This document shows positions 1,271 through 53,003 of a stretch of 64,000 nucleotides of DNA, piece by piece. Within the stretch, counting starts at the first letter, position 1; each line of letters starts with the position of its first letter. The stretch spans positions 67,636 to 131,635 of the forward strand of contig DATEAH010000005.1 of the NCBI GenBank assembly GCA_035288465.1, read 5' to 3'. The position numbers and the translations under genes are program-made. The notes beneath the pieces were generated by a model, which was given only the letters and a program-made list of their open reading frames with translations, was not told the origin of the DNA and made no database searches. The DNA comes from Patescibacteria group bacterium (GTDB lineage: Bacteria; Patescibacteriota; UBA1384; DATEAH01).

Positions 1271-1858
1271 AATGTGGGCATCCTGAACAGGTTGTTTGGC
1301 GGTTCAAATCCTTTAGATCAAAGAGTTAAACAGATCGCCGATGAATTGGGTAGAAAATGCCGAGAATATCTTCAACAGCACCAGATTAACCCACAAACAG
1401 AAGCAATTAATATTGGTACTGCTTGTGGAATTATAAGAAAAGCCCATCACCCCGCACAATTTACTGATATTGCTTTTGACCTAATGACTTATCCTTCGGA
1501 AGTAGCTTATGGAATTGTAAATTATTTTGACTATTTTACCCCACAGCTCGGATTTATCCCGGTTGGCACGATAATGGTTGCTTTATCAAAAATTGAATCG
1601 TTGTATCCGGGAGGCGTAATAATCCGGCTATCATTTGCCAAAGAAAATCCAGAACTTATGGAGGTTATTGAGTCAAAAGAAGAAAGAATCAAAAGAGCCG
1701 GCAAAATAATTGCGGTTGGCATCCTTTTTACTCAAGAAACTCTCCGAGGAGCAAGGACAATGTACAAAAATAATGTCTTTGATCCATTGGTTCAAGCGGC
1801 AACCATCGAAGAATTGCGGAATTTTGACCCAGAAGTTGCTAGCGCAATTATCAGTTAA
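1271..1858 (+). CDS. hypothetical protein
   Basis: ORF 1217-1858; start moved to ATG 1271 preceded by aaaggag RBS; no recognizable domain. Confidence 0.5.
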   Translation, partial: NVGILNRLFGGSNPLDQRVKQIADELGRKCREYLQQHQINPQTEAINIGTACGIIRKAHHPAQFTDIAFDLMTYPSEVAYGIVNYFDYFTPQLGFIPVGTIMVALSKIESLYPGGVIIRLSFAKENPELMEVIESKEERIKRAGKIIAVGILFTQETLRGARTMYKNNVFDPLVQAATIEELRNFDPEVASAIIS

Positions 1859-1895
1859 GCCCTAAGAGGCTTCGCCCTTTCAGGGCTTTTTTTAT
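1859..1895 (+). terminator. rho-independent terminator (plus strand)
   Basis: gggcttcgccctttcagggc hairpin then TTTTTTT. Confidence 0.6.
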
Positions 1896-1936
1896 AATAA
1901 AAAAACCCGTTGGGGGTGGTGAGACCCGAAACGGGT
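1896..1936 (-). terminator. rho-independent terminator (minus strand)
   Basis: cccgtttcgggtctcaccacccccaacggg hairpin followed by T-run on minus strand. Confidence 0.6.
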
Positions 1937-1958
1937 GGATAATAAAGAAAAGTTGAAA

Positions 1959-2978
1959 TTAGATGCCGAGGATTAGTTTGGCTTGATTAATAAGATCTTG
2001 AGTTAGTGATATTGGCTTGAGTTGATATGCTTTCTCGAGATTGCCGAGAGCTTCCTTGATCATTGCCTTATCTTGAGTTAAAACTCCGAGTCGAAATTGT
2101 GAACGACCATATCTCATATAGATATCGGGTGTTTTTTTATAATTTTCAACATAAGATTTACAGTAAACATTTATCAATTGGTATCGAGAAATATTATATT
2201 TATTGAAGCTTTCTTCGAGGTCTTTTAAGTGTTGTTTGATACTATCAGGTACCCCTACGAAGGGATCCCAATTAAAAGTTTTTTCTTCTTGAATATATAA
2301 TTCATCTGCTTCCATGCTTATTTCAAGAAACCATATATTAATAAGACACCCTATTACTGTTAAATCTTGTGGATCTGATATCTTAGAAAATTGTTGTTTA
2401 AATGATGCGAATGCCTCAGATCCAACATCTCGATAACTAGTAAGCTTAGCTTCATCTAGCTTGCGTTGACAAGCGACACAAAGAGAAATCATCTTTACAA
2501 CTTCTGTAGTCTCTTTGGGGTGAGAGAAAACTCCTTCATCTATAATTATTTTTTCGGTTGCAGCTGAATCAGCAAGATATTGTTGGCTAAAGTCTGGATC
2601 TTTAGAGAATAAAAAAGACTTGGCATCCCAGACTTCATTTTTTTCATTATTGGCCAAATATATCGACGCAGAAAGAGTATAAGCCATTACTTTTTTTCCT
2701 AAAGCATTAGAAATTTTCGCCGACCATCTTATTAATTCAAAATCTTCATTGAATTCTATATCATTTTCTTTGTCTTCTTTCTCTAAAATATTTAACATAT
2801 TTACGGCATCTATATATTTCCCTTCATCAAAATATCCCTTCATAAGAGCTAGTGAAATAATTCTGGACATTTCGTAATCTGATACTACAAACTTATCTTC
2901 GGCATAAATTATGTTGGAGAATACTAATATTAATAGGACAAAGAGTGCGAGGAAAATGCTGCGTGGCGCTTGTTTCAC
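1959..2978 (-). CDS. secreted hypothetical protein (signal peptide)
   Basis: 339 aa; N-terminal hydrophobic signal MKQAPRSIFLALFVLLILVFSNIIYA; gaggtga RBS. Confidence 0.6.
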   Translation of the reverse strand: MKQAPRSIFLALFVLLILVFSNIIYAEDKFVVSDYEMSRIISLALMKGYFDEGKYIDAVNMLNILEKEDKENDIEFNEDFELIRWSAKISNALGKKVMAYTLSASIYLANNEKNEVWDAKSFLFSKDPDFSQQYLADSAATEKIIIDEGVFSHPKETTEVVKMISLCVACQRKLDEAKLTSYRDVGSEAFASFKQQFSKISDPQDLTVIGCLINIWFLEISMEADELYIQEEKTFNWDPFVGVPDSIKQHLKDLEESFNKYNISRYQLINVYCKSYVENYKKTPDIYMRYGRSQFRLGVLTQDKAMIKEALGNLEKAYQLKPISLTQDLINQAKLILGI

Positions 2979-7246: not shown

Positions 7247-7783
7247 TCAACCTTTGCCAAGAGTTTTTTGGCCAGGTTTCCAGCCAGCCGGACTCATTTC
7301 GCCGGTTTGTAGGGCTTTGAGAACTCGCAAAATTTCGGTCACACTTCTGCCAACATTATTATCGGAAACTAAAATATAACGAATGATTCCTTTGGGATCA
7401 ATGATAAAAGTGCCTCTTGAGGAAATTCCGGAGGCTAAATCTATTTCATATTTTTGAATGGCTTCTTTGTTGATATCTGATAAGAGCGGGAATTTTATAT
7501 CGCCTAGTTGTCTTGACCATTCCTGATGGGCATAAACGCTGTCGACACTGACTCCTAAAATTTCCGTGTGGCTATCTGCGAATTCCTGATATTTTTTATT
7601 CAGAGCGATAATTTCCGTCGGACAGACAAAACTAAAATCCAAGGGATAAAAAAAGAGAATTACCCACTTTTTACGATAATCTTTTAAGTTGTATTTCTTG
7701 ATATGGTTGGCTTTGAAACCTTCAAGAATAATATTGGGGGCTTTTTGACCAAGTTTAATCATTTTTTTCCTTTCTTTTGCCAC
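7247..7783 (-). CDS. peroxiredoxin (AhpC/TSA family)
   Basis: 178 aa; FFYPLDFSFVCPTE peroxidatic-cysteine motif. Confidence 0.9.
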   Translation of the reverse strand: MAKERKKMIKLGQKAPNIILEGFKANHIKKYNLKDYRKKWVILFFYPLDFSFVCPTEIIALNKKYQEFADSHTEILGVSVDSVYAHQEWSRQLGDIKFPLLSDINKEAIQKYEIDLASGISSRGTFIIDPKGIIRYILVSDNNVGRSVTEILRVLKALQTGEMSPAGWKPGQKTLGKG

Positions 7784-7797
7784 GAGATGGCGAAGTA

Positions 7798-7990
7798 TGG
7801 CTGAGCCATTTTTCGTGGCTCCGGGACAGGGATTCGAAGGGCTAAAGCCCGTCTCAACGCAGTCGTGGTATTTTTATTTCACGATTTGTGTAATAATTTC
7901 AGCATAAATAATTTTGTGGTTTGCGCAACGGGGTTCTCGCCAGATCACGGACAACTCAAAATCTTCCTATAAAACTGAAAAATTTTGAGT
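7798..7990 (-). mobile_element. putative miniature tRNA-linked element A (between tRNA-Gln and peroxiredoxin gene)
   Basis: Contains terminator-like hairpin, gaacccNNNgcg block, AT-rich block, conserved hairpin gggctttagccc (7839-7850) and a 23-nt duplicate of the tRNA-Gln 3' end (7816-7838). Confidence 0.4.
7816..7838 (-). repeat. duplicate of tRNA-Gln 3' end (T-loop to CCA), 1 mismatch
   Basis: ttcgaatccctgtcccggagcca vs tRNA tccgaatccctatcccggagcca at 7991-8013; lacks T-stem 5' strand so not a tRNA. Confidence 0.85.
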
Positions 7991-8064
7991 TGGCTCCGGG
8001 ATAGGGATTCGGACCCCAATTTTCAGGACCAAAACCTGACGTCCTGCCATTAGACGATCCCGGA
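7991..8064 (-). tRNA. tRNA-Gln (anticodon TTG), CCA encoded
   Basis: Hand-folded cloverleaf: acceptor tccggga/tcccgga, D-stem gtct/ggac, anticodon stem tcagg/cctga, loop ttTTGgt, T-arm tgggg-tccgaat-cccta. Confidence 0.85.
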
Positions 8065-8130
8065 ATCTGCTTTAATTCTATCACAAATTATGCTTATTTA
8101 AAATAAAATCACCCAATTTGGGTGATTTTG

Positions 8131-8151
8131 TATATCTTGAGTGGATAATAA
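8131..8151 (+). repeat. 21-bp direct repeat identical to rnpB 3' end (copy distal to rnpB)
   Basis: atatcttgagtggataataag identical to 9165-9185; both copies preceded by a GC hairpin plus gatttt. Confidence 0.85.
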
Positions 8152-8187
8152 GATGAATTAATAATATAATACAACCAGGAGGAAATA

Positions 8188-9108
8188 ATGAATGGACCAG
8201 AAATATTTTCGGAATCAAATGGAGAACATGATCACAACGAATTTTCTAATATTCCAATAGACCCAGAAATTTCAGAGGAAAATACTAAAGCCCGAGAACT
8301 TACAAGTTTAACGATAGACTTTTTGCATAATGCTCACATTTCTAAAGAAAAAAGAGGTAATCCAGAGCTACAAGATGCAACTTTAATGAGATTATTCCAA
8401 GACCAGTCCTGGCGTCTCAGAGTTAATAAAGCAACCCAGAAAGCAGATCAAGAGTGGCAAAAGACAGCCAAAACTTTTACAGTCGCGAGAGAGTTGTCGC
8501 GAGAAGCACCCTTTGTTACTCCGTCGTTTGCTTGTCCTTCGCCATTTGTTGAATTGTTAGCTGATTATGATCAGGGCTTAGAAATTGCTAAACTTAAAGA
8601 AAATTCACCATTGGAAAGTTGGCTAGAAGCTTATATTCGCGAAAGACCGGTTAAATTTTATAATCCTTCTCATAGTCTTGCATCTCCTGATCTTATTGCA
8701 CTTAGACGTGAAGGAAAATCGGCAGTAATAGTTGCCGTTGGCGAAGCGAAAAGAGGTTATCTCGGTGTCGGGGAAAGACCTTCTCAATCTAGGGATCGCA
8801 GAGAGGGATTGCCACAATTTAGAAAAATACTTAGAGATCTCCCTAAAAGAGTTAAACTTCTCAATTCTAATCTTTCTTCCATGAGAGAAAAAAGGCCATT
8901 TCTAAAAGAAATTGATGAATTTGCGGTTGCAGGTTTAACCGAATTGAAAAAATATTTAATAGTCCCATTTGATGTCGCTACTCCTCGTGAAGACATGAAA
9001 ATTCGAGGTCTTGAGCCTTGGGAAAGAGATGAAATGAGTTTTTCACGCCAAGAATTGGCTTACCTTTCATTGTTATTAGTGCGTCAATCAAAAATAAAAA
9101 AACAATAA
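8188..9108 (+). CDS. hypothetical protein (cargo of the segment bounded by rnpB 3' end repeats)
   Basis: 306 aa; strong aggagg RBS; no recombinase or other recognizable motifs. Confidence 0.6.
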   Translation: MNGPEIFSESNGEHDHNEFSNIPIDPEISEENTKARELTSLTIDFLHNAHISKEKRGNPELQDATLMRLFQDQSWRLRVNKATQKADQEWQKTAKTFTVARELSREAPFVTPSFACPSPFVELLADYDQGLEIAKLKENSPLESWLEAYIRERPVKFYNPSHSLASPDLIALRREGKSAVIVAVGEAKRGYLGVGERPSQSRDRREGLPQFRKILRDLPKRVKLLNSNLSSMREKRPFLKEIDEFAVAGLTELKKYLIVPFDVATPREDMKIRGLEPWERDEMSFSRQELAYLSLLLVRQSKIKKQ

Positions 9109-9126
9109 GATCTAAATCAAAAATTA

Positions 9127-9160
9127 TAATTTAAAAAATCGTCCTAAACTGGGACGATTT
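9127..9160. terminator. bidirectional rho-independent terminator
   Basis: aaaaaatcgtcctaaactgggacgattttt: hairpin flanked by A-run and T-run, between convergent ORF 8188-9108 and rnpB. Confidence 0.6.
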
Positions 9161-9164
9161 TTAA

Positions 9165-9540
9165 ATATCTTGAGTGGATAATAAGCCGAGTTTTGTTCCG
9201 CCAATTGGCGGAAGATAATCATCTATCTTTGCGGTGGGTCCCAAAATGTCCAAAACGAGCAGCTTCATTACCATATGGTGACATTTCAGTCCATTCCACC
9301 TTGCACCGGATAGGGTTTACCACTTTCCGATGTTACCATTGGAAAGAGAGGCTTCTTAGGTCCTCACTTTTCACCCTTACCACGCCTCATCGGCGGGCGG
9401 TTTAGTTTCTGTGACACTTTCCCTCGTTCGCACGGCCCTTCATCCCCAAATGTTAATCTGAAGGGTGCGGGGTATCCTGCTCTGTGGTGCTCGGACTTTC
9501 CTCTCCACCTCATCGGTGGAGCGATTATCTAATCCACTCA
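9165..9540 (-). ncRNA. rnpB: RNase P RNA (bacterial type A)
   Basis: Minus strand contains GAGGAAAGTCCGagCaCC (P4 5' strand) and ACAaAACtCGGCTTAT (P4 3' strand); P1 helix gtcttgagtggat/atccactcaaga; length about 375 nt. Confidence 0.85.
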
Positions 9541-25094: not shown

Positions 25095-25166
25095 GGGCCT
25101 GTAGCTCAGTGGTAGAGCATCTGCCTCTTAAGCAGAGTGTCGAGGGTTCGATCCCCTCCAGGCCCT
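25095..25166 (+). tRNA. tRNA-Lys (anticodon CTT)
   Basis: acceptor gggcctg/caggccc, anticodon stem tctgc/gcaga, loop ctCTTaa, T-arm gaggg-ttcgatc-ccctc. Confidence 0.85.
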
Positions 25167-25259
25167 TTTCCGGAAAGAAAACTCTTTTGAGGTTTTTTTC
25201 GGAAAATGGCTTGTGGTGGTAAGAACCCACAGGCGATAAATAAACAATTGAGTAAAAAG

Positions 25260-25288
25260 TTGATATTTTAGCAAAGACTTAATATAAA
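25260..25288 (+). promoter_or_regulatory. sigma70-like promoter TTGATA-17-TATAAA inside element C
   Basis: ttgatattttagcaaagacttaatataaa; 30-nt block nearly identical to element B (47338-47366). Confidence 0.45.
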
Positions 25289-25323
25289 TCAAAATGTTGT
25301 TGCATCGGGACGGGGTTTACCCC

Positions 25324-25343
25324 TTCGATCCCCTCCAGGCCCT
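25324..25343 (+). repeat. exact duplicate of tRNA-Lys 3' end (T-loop to discriminator)
   Basis: ttcgatcccctccaggccct identical to 25147-25166. Confidence 0.9.
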
Positions 25344-46301: not shown

Positions 46302-46646
46302 TTAAAAACCATTTGGCAATAAAATCCAGATAAATCTATTATACCCAAGGACTGCTGATAATACAATTAGAAGTCCGGCTTCGACAATAACTACTCCCCA
46401 CAACCAAGTACGATTTTCTAATTTTTTATAATAGATTAAAGAAAGCATCACAAAAATTGTTAAACTGCCGACCAGCATGAGTGAACCCATTGTCATATCA
46501 AAGGTTTTGGGGCTTGCGATCCAAGTGGCTTGTGGATTTCTGATTTTAGCGTATTCATATTCCAAAAAACTGCTACCGAGCCAAAAAAATCCTGCTGCCA
46601 AGATTAAAAGTAATAAATTATTTAGATGTTTGATGTTTTTTTTCAT
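46302..46646 (-). CDS. membrane protein
   Basis: 114 aa, 3-4 TM helices. Confidence 0.5.
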   Translation of the reverse strand: MKKNIKHLNNLLLLILAAGFFWLGSSFLEYEYAKIRNPQATWIASPKTFDMTMGSLMLVGSLTIFVMLSLIYYKKLENRTWLWGVVIVEAGLLIVLSAVLGYNRFIWILLPNGF

Positions 46647-47266
46647 TTATTTGATACTTCTTTTATCACCCCATATTTGGCAATTTTTTGATGATTTCTT
46701 TCTGCCCACCAAATATCACCATATGACCAATGCCAATACTCACTTGGATAATTTGATAAACCAGCCTTAGCCAATGCTGTAAACATTATTTTCCGATTAT
46801 TTTGAAGATACACCGGCAATTTAGATTGAATGGATTTGGCATTTTCTTGATAAGATAATTTTGAGCTTTTCATCGGTACTTTTCGGTCATTCTTCCACAA
46901 CCTCAAATCTACGGCTCCACCAGTCATATGGCCGGAGGCATATTTGCCATCAGCGGGGGCAACATATTTTTCAACTTCTTTGATAATTCTTTTTTCTGAC
47001 CATTTGGGATATTTTTTAGTAAATTTACAGATAAAGTCTTTAAAAATTTTTCTTTGAACATATTGTGGCCGCCACGCATCACCAATAATAAAGGTCATTC
47101 CGTTTGGTAAAAATTTTTCTGCTTTTTGCAACATTTTAGCAACAGTTTTTCTTAAATATGCGGTTTTTTCTTTTTTCATTCTTGAAGCATCTAAATCAAT
47201 CACAAAATTAGGACATAATTTTTTAAGATTAACCAAAGGCTCATTTGATTCAATAATTTTTATCAT
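46643..47266 (-). CDS. D-Ala-D-Ala dipeptidase (VanX-like, peptidase M15)
   Basis: DAWRP, SGHMTGGAVDL, EYWHW motifs of VanX family. Confidence 0.8.
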   Translation of the reverse strand: MIKIIESNEPLVNLKKLCPNFVIDLDASRMKKEKTAYLRKTVAKMLQKAEKFLPNGMTFIIGDAWRPQYVQRKIFKDFICKFTKKYPKWSEKRIIKEVEKYVAPADGKYASGHMTGGAVDLRLWKNDRKVPMKSSKLSYQENAKSIQSKLPVYLQNNRKIMFTALAKAGLSNYPSEYWHWSYGDIWWAERNHQKIAKYGVIKEVSNK

Positions 47267-47282
47267 TAGGGTAATAACTTCT

Positions 47283-47450
47283 AGTGGGTAACGAGAGTCG
47301 AAGGGCTGAAGCCCGTCTCAACGCAATTGAATTAAAATTTATTTAATGTTTTTGCTAAAATATCACGTTGATTTTAATAAGTGACTAACGCTTCGGGTTC
47401 GACACACTTACTTATTTCTTTTTGCCGTTTTTAGACGGTACAAAGAAATA
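47283..47450 (-). mobile_element. putative miniature tRNA-linked element B (downstream of tRNA-Trp, upstream of vanX-like gene)
   Basis: Terminator-like hairpin, gaacccgaagcg block, promoter-like block, conserved hairpin gggcttcagccc, 20-nt duplicate of tRNA-Trp 3' end (47283-47302, 2 mismatches). Confidence 0.4.
47338..47366 (-). promoter_or_regulatory. sigma70-like promoter GTGATA-17-AATAAA inside element B
   Basis: Minus-strand gtgatattttagcaaaaacattaaataaa; would transcribe hairpin + tRNA-end copy + vanX-like gene. Confidence 0.4.
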
Positions 47451-47522
47451 AGCGGGTAACGGGAGTCGAACCCGTGTCTTCAGCTTGGAAAGCTGACATA
47501 ATAACCACTATACGATACCCGC
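47451..47522 (-). tRNA. tRNA-Trp (anticodon CCA), no encoded CCA end
   Basis: acceptor gcgggta/tacccgc, anticodon stem cagct/agctg, loop ttCCAag, T-arm acggg-ttcgact-cccgt. Confidence 0.85.
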
Positions 47523-47526
47523 AAAC

Positions 47527-47603
47527 TGGTCGGGGTGGTGAGATTTGAACTCACGATCTCCACGTCCCAAACGTGGCGCCTTAAGCCACTAGGCCACACC
47601 CCG
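47527..47603 (-). tRNA. tRNA-Pro (anticodon TGG), CCA encoded
   Basis: acceptor cggggtg/caccccg, anticodon stem ccacg/cgtgg, loop ttTGGga. Confidence 0.85.
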
Positions 47604-52823: not shown

Positions 52824-52872
52824 AAAATCTGAGTAATTTCAATCTTATTTTAGCACTTTTTGGCAATCTTCA

Positions 52873-52931
52873 CAATTTAAAAAGCGGGATACCGGGATCG
52901 AACTGGCGCCTCCACCTTACCTGCCCGCCAT
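52873..52931 (-). repeat. degenerate tandem copy of tRNA-Gly 3' half immediately downstream of tRNA-Gly
   Basis: gtggaggcgccagttcgatcccggtatcccgct vs tRNA-Gly aagaggtcgccggttcgaatccggtctaccgct; preceded by GGCGCC palindrome; cannot fold into full cloverleaf. Confidence 0.7.
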
Positions 52932-53003
52932 CGATAGAATGAGCGGTAGACCGGATTCGAACCGGCGACCTCTTCCTTGGGAAGGAAGCATTCTGCCACT
53001 GAA
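52932..53003 (-). tRNA. tRNA-Gly (anticodon CCC)
   Basis: acceptor gcggtag/ctaccgc, anticodon stem cttcc/ggaag, loop ttCCCaa, T-arm cgccg-gttcgaa-tccgg. Confidence 0.85.

Follow-up and report, generated by a model that had tools for sequence, protein, structure and literature searches.

Repeated small units downstream of three tRNA genes in a Patescibacteria genome, and their possible origin by insertion at tRNA T-loops

Anatomy of the units

The stretch analyzed here, 64,000 nt from a Patescibacteria group bacterium (the window, to which all coordinates refer unless a contig label stands before them), carries on its minus strand a tRNA-Pro(UGG)/tRNA-Gly(UCC) gene pair, then a small gene-less element, and then an open reading frame (ORF) for a Peptidase_M15/VanX-like protein (Table 1). 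A sequence-only reading of this locus had named the second tRNA Trp, and had proposed that a mini-element downstream of it ends in a copy of the tRNA 3′ end and may supply the promoter and 5′ untranslated region (UTR) of the VanX-like gene. The Trp assignment came from a misread loop: ARAGORN calls tRNA-Gly(UCC), the anticodon loop is TT-TCC-AA, and the syntenic orthologs in L071-L074, L088 and L089 are likewise called tRNA-Gly(tcc). The anatomy itself is as that reading described it. The tRNA end at 47451 is followed downstream by its copy, the AT hairpin, the block GTCGAACCCGAAGCG and the GTGATA..AATAAA sequence are all present, and the ATG of the co-oriented VanX-like gene (47266) lies 16 nt beyond the copy, across AGAAGTTATTACCCTA.

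Counted from the tRNA, the element begins with a long hairpin whose stem includes the last 2 nt of tRNA-Gly, and continues with the block GTCGAACCCGAAGCG, in which GTCGAACCCG is a perfect inverted repeat of the tRNA-Gly T-arm segment CGGGTTCGAC (10/10). After the block TGATATTTTAGCAAA comes a right-end motif of 28 nt, and then the copy of the tRNA end, which we call the tail. At this locus the tail TTCGACTCTCGTTACCCACT is directly preceded by TGCGTTGAGACGGGCTTCAGCCC and overlaps the motif, and the start-to-start spacing between the tRNA end and its copy is 168 nt.

The element is one of three paralogous units in the window, which lie downstream of tRNA-Gln, tRNA-Lys and tRNA-Gly(UCC), and this recurrence is real and far beyond chance. 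A 27-nt form of the motif matches twice in the window, at tRNA-Gly and at tRNA-Gln (7834-7860), with one loop base changed between them as had been noticed before, against 0.00 matches expected from 100 shuffles; the third, diverged copy, after tRNA-Lys(CUU), has the variant motif TGCATCGGGACGGGGTTTACCCCTTCGA and was found by a relaxed search. A script that took the terminal 16 nt of every tRNA in the window (11 in all) located a downstream copy for only these three, at 159 (Gln), 161 (Lys) and 152 nt (Gly) from the tRNA end and with 1, 0 and 2 mismatches, respectively. All three units have the same order of parts, namely a hairpin abutting the tRNA end, a GAACCC..GCG block, the TGATATTTTAGCAAA block, the 28-nt motif (consensus TGCRTYGRGAC-GGGS-TTYA-SCCC-TTCGA) and a tail of 15-18 nt that is identical or nearly identical to the 3′ end of its own tRNA and stops exactly at the tRNA gene end. 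The proposal of a recurrent mini-element is therefore supported.

The units align collinearly, with their conservation in blocks at fixed spacing. Identity between copies of the right-end motif is 22-27/28 (27/28 for Gln vs Gly), and Lys and Gly agree at 25/29 positions of the TGATATTTTAGCAAA..AAATAAA block; the spacers between the blocks are about 40% identical, and the tails are tRNA-specific. The left hairpins keep their position and form in all three units and have unrelated sequences. In the motif hairpin, a compensatory change gives the Lys copy GGGG/CCCC as its stem in place of GGGC/GCCC, and RNAalifold lengthens this stem through TYGRG/TTCGA pairs. Searched with a three-copy profile, the window, about 18 kb of adjoining genome and the corresponding loci of relatives yielded no further copy. 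Over the element, ARAGORN reports no tRNA and no tRNA-like 5′ half, and Rfam gives no RNA family match, only chance-level miRNA-like matches at E up to 10.

The boundaries of the repeats are equally regular. At all three loci the match to the tRNA sets in where T-stem and T-loop meet (T54) and stops with the tRNA gene itself, at the discriminator base for Lys and Gly and, for Gln, at the encoded CCA. ARAGORN and Rfam call a full tRNA gene at each locus, indicating that the target is left intact at the left junction. Mature tRNA-Lys and tRNA-Gly would end in CCA, which the Lys and Gly copies lack, so mature tRNA was not their source; and because the repeat lengths (20 vs 23 nt, or 15 vs 18 nt) follow the tRNA end, they argue against a fixed-length target-site duplication. 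A repeat search of the three elements found no terminal inverted repeats. TTCGA or TCCGA also stands before the left junction, the sequence after the tail reads CGAAAAATGGCTCAGCC... at Gln and ATAATCAAAAGCGCTC... at Lys, and both of these tails are again trailed by hairpins within about 6 nt.

Several further similarities to tRNA were considered and set aside. The GAACCC block is not an inverted copy of the cognate tRNA end or 5′ acceptor strand, given that cognate scores do not exceed non-cognate ones, and its pairing with the tail gives duplex energies no better than for shuffled tails. The complementarity to the T-arm that remains is GGGTTCGA/TCGAACCC, which is 10/10 in Gly and extends in Lys to 36-nt arms at 72%. 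A second decayed tRNA-end repeat at +71 nt (12/15 in Gly) is not significant (z -0.1 to 1.9), nor is the resemblance to tRNA positions 39-53 that would make a fossil of the motif's 5′ part (P 0.6-0.8). As a separate observation, the T-loop of tRNA-Gln(UUG), TCCGAAT, has C at the near-universal U55, and the tail downstream of it reads canonical TTCGAAT. C55 was seen in only one other tRNA, a tRNA-Pro(CGG) in a relative (L069 1975-2047(-), TCCGATT), and there too a copy of the 3′ end lies downstream.

Table 1. Positions of the three units, their parts and adjoining genes in the window
Feature	Position	Strand	Details
tRNA-Pro(UGG)	47527..47603	-	ARAGORN; Rfam 68.5 bits; first gene of the Pro-Gly tRNA pair
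tRNA-Gly(UCC)	47451..47522	-	ARAGORN, anticodon tcc; Rfam 67.3 bits; CCA not encoded
Left direct repeat TTCGACTCCCGTTACCCGCT, T-loop through final base of tRNA-Gly	47451..47470	-	Repeat search and sequence check
Long AT-rich hairpin abutting the tRNA-Gly end	47411..47452	-	Inverted repeat, 18-nt arms, 89% complementary; folds
Block GTCGAACCCGAAGCG, core GAACCC..GCG	47389..47403	-	Alignments; core conserved in 3/3 elements
Conserved block TGATATTTTAGCAAA	47351..47365	strand-neutral	Identical 15-mer in Lys element; promoter scan
Gly right-end motif TGCGTTGAGAC-GGGC-TTCA-GCCC-TTCGA = TGCGTTGAGACGGGCTTCAGCCCTTCGA	47298..47325	-	Hairpin at 47303-47314
Right direct repeat (tail) TTCGACTCTCGTTACCCACT	47283..47302	-	18/20 identical to tRNA-Gly end
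Peptidase_M15/VanX-like ORF	46643..47266	-	Flank, outside element; ATG 47266-47264
tRNA-Gln(UUG)	7991..8064	-	CCA encoded; T-loop TCCGAAT unusual; left repeat 7991-8013
Gln element	7816..7990	-	Hairpin arms 7952-7992; GAACCC from 7936; block TGAAATTATTACACAAA 7885-7901
Gln right-end motif	7834-7861	-	Tail TTCGAATCCCTGTCCCGGAGCCA 7816-7838, 21/23 identical, CCA included
tRNA-Lys(CUU)	25095..25166	+	CCA not encoded; left repeat 25147-25166
Lys element	25167..25343	+	Hairpin 25166-25205; GAACCC at 25223; TGATATTTTAGCAAA at 25261-25275
Lys right-end motif TGCATCGGGAC-GGGG-TTTA-CCCC-TTCGA	25301-25328	+	Tail 25324-25343, 20/20

The tRNA-Gly(UCC) locus in related genomes

Syntenic loci in related genomes were reached via homologs of the GT2 glycosyltransferase that adjoins tRNA-Pro, and the comparison of element content refers to the tRNA-Gly locus only. 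Two sister lineages (L071/L072 and L073/L074), with a GT2 protein about 70% identical, have the order PMT, GT2, (..), tRNA-Pro, tRNA-Gly(UCC), a 121-aa ORF, an fn3 ORF, tRNA-Arg(UCU), a methyltransferase and tRNA-His; the element and the VanX-like gene are both missing from them. Here tRNA-Gly ends in ...CCCGCTCCA, and the 121-aa ORF begins about 30 nt on. The element is also absent from the outgroup (L088/L089, GT2 57% identical), where, in L088, an unrelated 197-aa ORF lies 16 nt after tRNA-Gly(UCC) and overlaps by 4 nt a homolog (41% identity) of the 114-aa ORF found in the window at 46302-46646. The core order PMT, GT2, tRNA-Pro, tRNA-Gly(UCC) and a homolog of the 114-121-aa ORF is kept in the sisters and the outgroup. 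The tRNA pair and the next ORF are thus syntenic across these genomes.

In the relatives the first gene after tRNA-Gly lies 16-30 nt on, with no room for a promoter. The 16 nt between the tail and the VanX-like ATG match this spacing, which suggests that the tail sits where the original tRNA end was, and this is the main reason for reading the tail as the displaced original 3′ end of tRNA-Gly. In addition, both tRNA-Gly and the tail carry a lineage-specific base, GTTACCC, vs GTCACCC or GTATCCC in the relatives; since both copies share it, the rebuilt end fits the host tRNA. Across many samples, same-species contigs show 99.98-100% identity wherever they were compared, also in the element, and so offer no polymorphism.

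Judged from its gene content, the slot between tRNA-Gly(UCC) and the 114-121-aa membrane ORF behaves as a recombination hot spot. It holds the VanX-like gene here (46302-47266(-)), the 197-aa ORF in L088 (10641-11587) and nothing in L071 (from 13139) or L073 (from 5304). The stop of the VanX-like ORF overlaps the start of the 114-aa ORF, and both inserted genes, VanX-like and 197-aa, overlap the next ORF by 4 nt (ATGA). An N-terminal extension of the VanX-like ORF through the tail was rejected, as an in-frame TGA lies inside GTTGAGAC. VanX homologs of other relatives (L065, L067, L069) stand in unrelated contexts. At the tRNA-Gln locus, a JGI contig (L070 360-2179) corresponds to window 7581-9400 and is identical across the element; its first 359 nt, inside AhpC, do not align to window 7247-7580, which suggests a strain-level replacement or an assembly chimera.

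Origin of the units

The reading that we favor, and which we rate as about equally likely to be right or wrong, is that the units are the footprint of site-specific insertion of the attachment-site (att) type, or of a closely analogous targeted mechanism, in miniature form. A gene-less unit of about 150 bp plus the repeat would have been placed in the T-loop of a tRNA gene, the incoming DNA bringing its own version of the tRNA from T-loop through 3′ end, with the hairpin behind it. Such an element-borne 3′ segment would explain why the tRNA gene is intact at the left junction. The left repeat would then be the newcomer, and the original tRNA 3′ end would have been displaced about 170 bp downstream, where it would now stand directly behind the motif GGGS-TTYA-SCCC-TTCGA. 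The conserved blocks at fixed spacing may be protein-binding or promoter sites of the element arms, with the palindrome GGGCTTCAGCCC as a candidate recombinase binding site. The three copies would be old relatives, each specialized for one tRNA, and the insertion at tRNA-Gly, at least, would be later than the split from the sampled relatives. Anatomy, paralogy of the copies, repeat boundaries and lack of the element in relatives are observed; the recombination mechanism, the choice of the original repeat copy and any mobility today are inferred. This reading predicts an empty site in which tRNA-Gly ...GGGTTCGACTC(C/T)CGTTACCC(G/A)CT is joined to AGAAGTTATTACCCTAATG, a circle junction in which ...GGGCTTCAGCCCTTCGA is joined to CTCCCGTTACCCGCTTATTTCTTTG, and empty Gln and Lys sites in which the tRNA is followed by the sequence now behind the tail, CGAAAAATGGCTCAGCC and ATAATCAAAAGCGCTC, respectively.

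In favor of such an insertion, relatives with the same gene order at tRNA-Gly lack the element, the tRNA is intact at the left and the conserved motif abuts the right repeat. The repeat ends at the functional tRNA end, as selection on an element-borne replacement 3′ end would produce and as a fixed-length duplication would not predict. Both changes in the Gly tail are from G:C to A:T, one of them giving a C2-A71 acceptor mismatch, so the tail looks like an unused copy in decay. A T-loop-to-CCA segment also stands alone in a virus: L083 (IMGVR_UViG_3300044606_000144), a viral contig of 179 kb and 32% GC, contains at 1470-1495(-) the orphan fragment TTCGACTCTCGTTACCCGCTCCA, which derives from tRNA-Gly(UCC) and has the CTCTCG variant seen in the window tail. 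No tRNA gene, motif or recognizable integrase was found around this fragment.

Several observations weigh against this reading. No integrase or recombinase was found in the 64-kb window, where 30 ORFs searched against Pfam were all housekeeping, or in the gene tables of the flanks of about 18 kb. A full-length or larger relative with the right-end motif was found in no collection scanned. No empty site or excised form was seen, and all compared same-species contigs that cover an element locus carry the element. The VanX-like gene lies outside the repeats, yet it is likewise missing from the sister lineages. An identical collinear stretch of 150 bp or so is not what three independent deletions would leave behind, which implies that the unit was already miniature when it spread. 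Conservative site-specific recombination alone cannot give one family three cognate tRNA ends, and double-stranded DNA closed into a circle of only about 170 bp is awkward as a substrate for recombination.

The scans behind the second of these points used exact patterns, which are stringent, and the candidate phyla radiation is under-sampled. Among species-representative genomes the exact motif gave 59 matches, essentially all unrelated, mostly in GC-rich taxa and attributable to chance; one candidate, in an unclassified groundwater bacterium, was rejected, its sequence being unrelated with no tRNA nearby. In JGI metagenomes the motif was found in the same species only. IMG/VR scans gave no match for the motif, the promoter block or the Lys tail, and for the Gly and Gln tails they gave phage tRNA genes and a few orphan tRNA-Gly 3′ fragments, none with the motif. 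Searches with blastn of GenBank phages and PLSDB plasmids returned nothing, and a homolog search with the ORF adjoining tRNA-Gln returned only itself.

A bolder version of the insertion reading, which we consider possible if rather doubtful, holds that the units are living miniature integrative elements moved in trans or, alternatively, products of structure-guided insertion. As living elements they would consist of an attachment site and arms, one tRNA per member, with the recombinase encoded elsewhere, and insertion would rebuild the tRNA 3′ end and a terminator-like hairpin and bring a promoter. In the structure-guided alternative, offered as speculation, cuts would be made at the T-loop and at the foot of the hairpin abutting the tRNA, and the stretch between them would be duplicated. 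Such cuts would duplicate the cognate 3′ end automatically, thereby solving the problem of three specificities, and the hairpins that recur within about 6 nt of the Gln and Lys tails would support them.

It is unlikely, in our judgment, that the units are instead purpose-built regulatory cassettes, in which a promoter and a hairpin/tRNA-end mimic form the 5′ leader of the next gene. The part of the sequence-only proposal that stands is the position of the element, which shares the orientation of the VanX-like gene and stops 16 nt short of it; the Gln element stands likewise to AhpC (ATG at 7762, 53 nt past the tail). The hairpin after the tRNA may stop read-through, so a downstream gene would need a new promoter; the right-end motif and tail are far better conserved than the spacers; and the sense strand of the Lys element has a reasonable TTGATA-17-TATAAA. 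However, the promoter that had been proposed for the Gly element, GTGATA-17-AATAAA, does not have the invariant T that closes the -10 hexamer and was not called by the sigma-70 scan, no sense-strand promoter passed that scan in any of the three elements, and the Lys copy is followed by a convergent small ORF, with no co-oriented gene downstream. The equivalent gene in relatives lies 16-30 nt from the tRNA with no such cassette, Rfam has no matching family, and we know of no mechanism in which a leader employs a tRNA 3′ end copied in the same sense.

The promoters that were predicted lie on the other strand. There the conserved block reads TTTGCTAAAAT, a predicted extended -10 promoter, and the plus strand of the Gly block holds TGCTAAAAT (47353-47361), whose predicted extended -10 promoter is aimed at the tRNA. 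The sole promoter called by the scan inside the Gly element is the opposite-strand TTAAAA-18-TAAAAT with TG, and the sole one inside the Lys element is the opposite-strand TTGATT-16-(TGC)TAAAAT, from 25292 to 25265; none was called inside the Gln element. A consensus extended -10 on the opposite strand in two of three units, with none in sense, counts against the cassette. The pattern TGCTAWAAT occurs 10 times in the window vs 2.65 expected, and this extended -10 form is the one found upstream of the genome's own tRNA genes, where at least two sites (upstream of tRNA-Arg/Lys and of tRNA-Thr) are evident tRNA promoters. The best-supported predicted promoter in the element thus appears to point to the tRNA, away from the VanX-like gene. 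An opposite-strand small RNA running from the extended -10 promoter to the hairpin was set aside, as the alignment is too poor to reveal a conserved fold.

The elements are, for these reasons, unlikely to be a dedicated promoter or leader of the gene that follows, and a promoter or 5′ UTR role would be at best a side effect. Insertion may still alter VanX-like and AhpC expression, given that it places a long hairpin between these genes and the tRNA promoter, and a possible by-product would be the restoration of their transcription after this cut-off. Such an effect would be a consequence of insertion and is not evidence of purpose.

A non-autonomous single-strand element of the HUH/Y1 kind (IS200/IS605 or repetitive extragenic palindrome, REP), inserting after the T-loop pentanucleotide TTCGA and mobilized in trans, is likewise improbable in our estimation. 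The units are small with hairpins near both ends, TTCGA or TCCGA stands before the left junction as well, and at the right end the 5′ flank TYGRG of a conserved GC hairpin can pair with the 3′ TTCGA. IS608 right ends have a guide/cleavage-site arrangement that resembles this pairing. In addition, a Y1 (HUH) transposase resembling REP-associated tyrosine transposases (RAYTs), 215 aa long and scoring 77.2 bits against NCBIfam REP_Tyr_transpos (cut-off 80), is encoded about 8 kb beyond the left edge of the window (L076 18408-19055). However, this family makes no target duplication, leaving the 15-23 nt cognate repeat unexplained, and the left hairpins are unrelated between copies, though one transposase should see similar hairpins at both ends. 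The RAYT-like gene (region L076 18340-19130) is bracketed by inverted GGGGGACGGTTCTC / GAGAACCGTCCCCC repeats, the right one doubled, and these repeats are absent from the window and unrelated to the element; we therefore rejected this transposase as the mobilizing enzyme.

Very unlikely is an origin by local duplication and decay, in which a partial tandem tRNA duplicate or pseudogene would have been kept similar by gene conversion. Fragments of tRNA do adjoin tRNA genes in these genomes, as with a tRNA-Gly 3′ half 22 nt after tRNA-Gly(CCC) in the window and a partial copy after tRNA-Pro(CGG) in L069, and the tail has the lineage-specific base of the resident tRNA-Gly. Independent duplications cannot, however, yield homologous non-tRNA parts at three loci (motif 27/28 identical between Gln and Gly), no tRNA-like 5′ half was detected by ARAGORN or Rfam, and the extra similarities to the cognate tRNA are not significant.

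A guide-RNA-like unit, in which a hairpin scaffold carries a 15-20 nt 3′ guide matching a tRNA gene, on the model of the tRNA-homing crRNA of type V-K CRISPR transposons or the TnpB omega-RNA, is scarcely credible: a conserved hairpin is indeed followed by a fixed TTCGA and a variable, guide-length 3′ segment matching a nearby conserved target, but no guide-RNA effector or transposase gene is linked to the element in about 82 kb (window and flanks), the Lys guide matches its own intact tRNA gene perfectly and would be self-targeting, a supported sense promoter and an Rfam match are lacking, and the tail stands where the original tRNA end is expected.

Comparison with known systems, and further tRNA-linked fragments

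Of the systems already described, those nearest to these units are integrative elements whose tyrosine-integrase att sites lie in tRNA or tmRNA T-loops. Williams reportedly distinguished, in 2002, 'sublocations' of tyrosine-integrase att sites in tRNA genes. The genomic islands at ssrA of Dehalococcoides are an example of integrative elements that target tRNA and tmRNA genes (PMC3146451). In mycobacteriophage Ms6, attP and attB are reported to recombine within the T-loop of tRNA-Ala, and an altered attP core, according to the title of that paper, permits integration into different tRNA-Ala T-loops (PMC1762012). Our units resemble such T-loop elements in having an intact tRNA on one side and a T-loop-to-3′-end repeat on the other, a conserved, element-derived motif directly upstream of the repeat, a lack of the whole element in relatives at the Gly locus, and a tRNA-adjacent hot spot with lineage-specific cargo. 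They differ in size and content, as the known elements measure kilobases and carry their own integrase, whereas these are about 150 bp and gene-less. They also differ in that one family occurs at three tRNAs, each with the cognate end, and in that no excised form, within-species empty site or integrase was seen here.

Two other groups of elements invite comparison. Cis-mobilizable elements (CIMEs) are remnants of integrative elements that are bounded by attL and attR and have no recombination genes. The present units share with CIMEs att-like repeats as bounds, the lack of their own recombinase and a presumable reliance on a recombinase in trans; CIMEs, in contrast, are kilobase-sized deletion derivatives beside a functional element at one site, whereas here three collinear units of about 150 bp occupy three sites with no parent element in view. 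CIMEs are mentioned in the Dehalococcoides paper (PMC3146451). Like miniature inverted-repeat transposable elements (MITEs), the palindrome-associated elements of IS200/IS605 and REP/RAYT systems, the units are small, gene-less and repeated in one genome, with terminal or subterminal hairpins, and as in REP/RAYT systems a RAYT-like gene is present in the same genome. Unlike MITEs, they have no demonstrated terminal inverted repeats, and their flanking repeat varies in length as set by the tRNA end; unlike all of these, their left hairpin is unconserved and insertion is strictly tRNA-associated, in one orientation.

Repeats of tRNA 3′ ends normally mark kilobase islands or prophages with an integrase. 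Here they bound gene-less units of about 150 bp at three different tRNAs in a tiny genome of the candidate phyla radiation, with conserved blocks at fixed spacing. If the units are now or were recently mobile, they would be the integrase-world counterpart of MITEs and a compact natural example of an attachment site re-targeted between tRNAs. If they are only scars, they would be an ordinary record of past integration at tRNA hot spots. In the meantime the VanX-like and AhpC genes have been split from the tRNA genes that they probably once directly followed, and their expression may have been rewired.

Further tRNA-linked fragments were seen in the window and in a relative. The orphan tRNA-Gly 3′ half (52883-52918(-)) runs from the anticodon loop to the 3′ end and lies within the 117-nt spacer 52824-52940 between tRNA-Gly(CCC) and tRNA-Thr(CGU), a gap that is 2 nt in the outgroup L088 and 1.8 kb in L071. 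It agrees with positions 35-71 of L073 tRNA-Gly(UCC) at 32/36 bases, a closer match than with any tRNA of its own genome, and the GCGGGCA before it is a possible 5′ acceptor remnant. This half is a tRNA hot-spot scar of a different type, with no right-end motif. In L069 (GCA_041642995.1, JBGGHL010005247.1; region 1860-1975(-)), a 17-nt copy of the tRNA-Pro(CGG) 3′ end, GATTCCCGGCGGCCCGA, stands about 80 nt beyond that tRNA and begins mid T-loop; between the two lies a GC-rich hairpin with GATGCGTGAGGTCTGGGTCCGACT, 18/24 identical (by eye) to tRNA positions of about 37-60. The layout resembles that of the window elements, and nhmmer finds no homology. Elsewhere in L069 (5450-5650(+)), a short frame with a GIY-YIG-like motif (..KIYIGYTRDLLK..) separates an upstream 5′ fragment of tRNA-Lys(UUU) from an apparently intact tRNA-Lys(UUU) that the contig end cuts; this locus looks like a homing-endonuclease remnant with partial tRNA duplication. 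Finally, the window encodes an ordinary class A bacterial RNase P RNA (175 bits) at 9167-9540(-), between UvrA and the hypothetical ORF beside tRNA-Gln.

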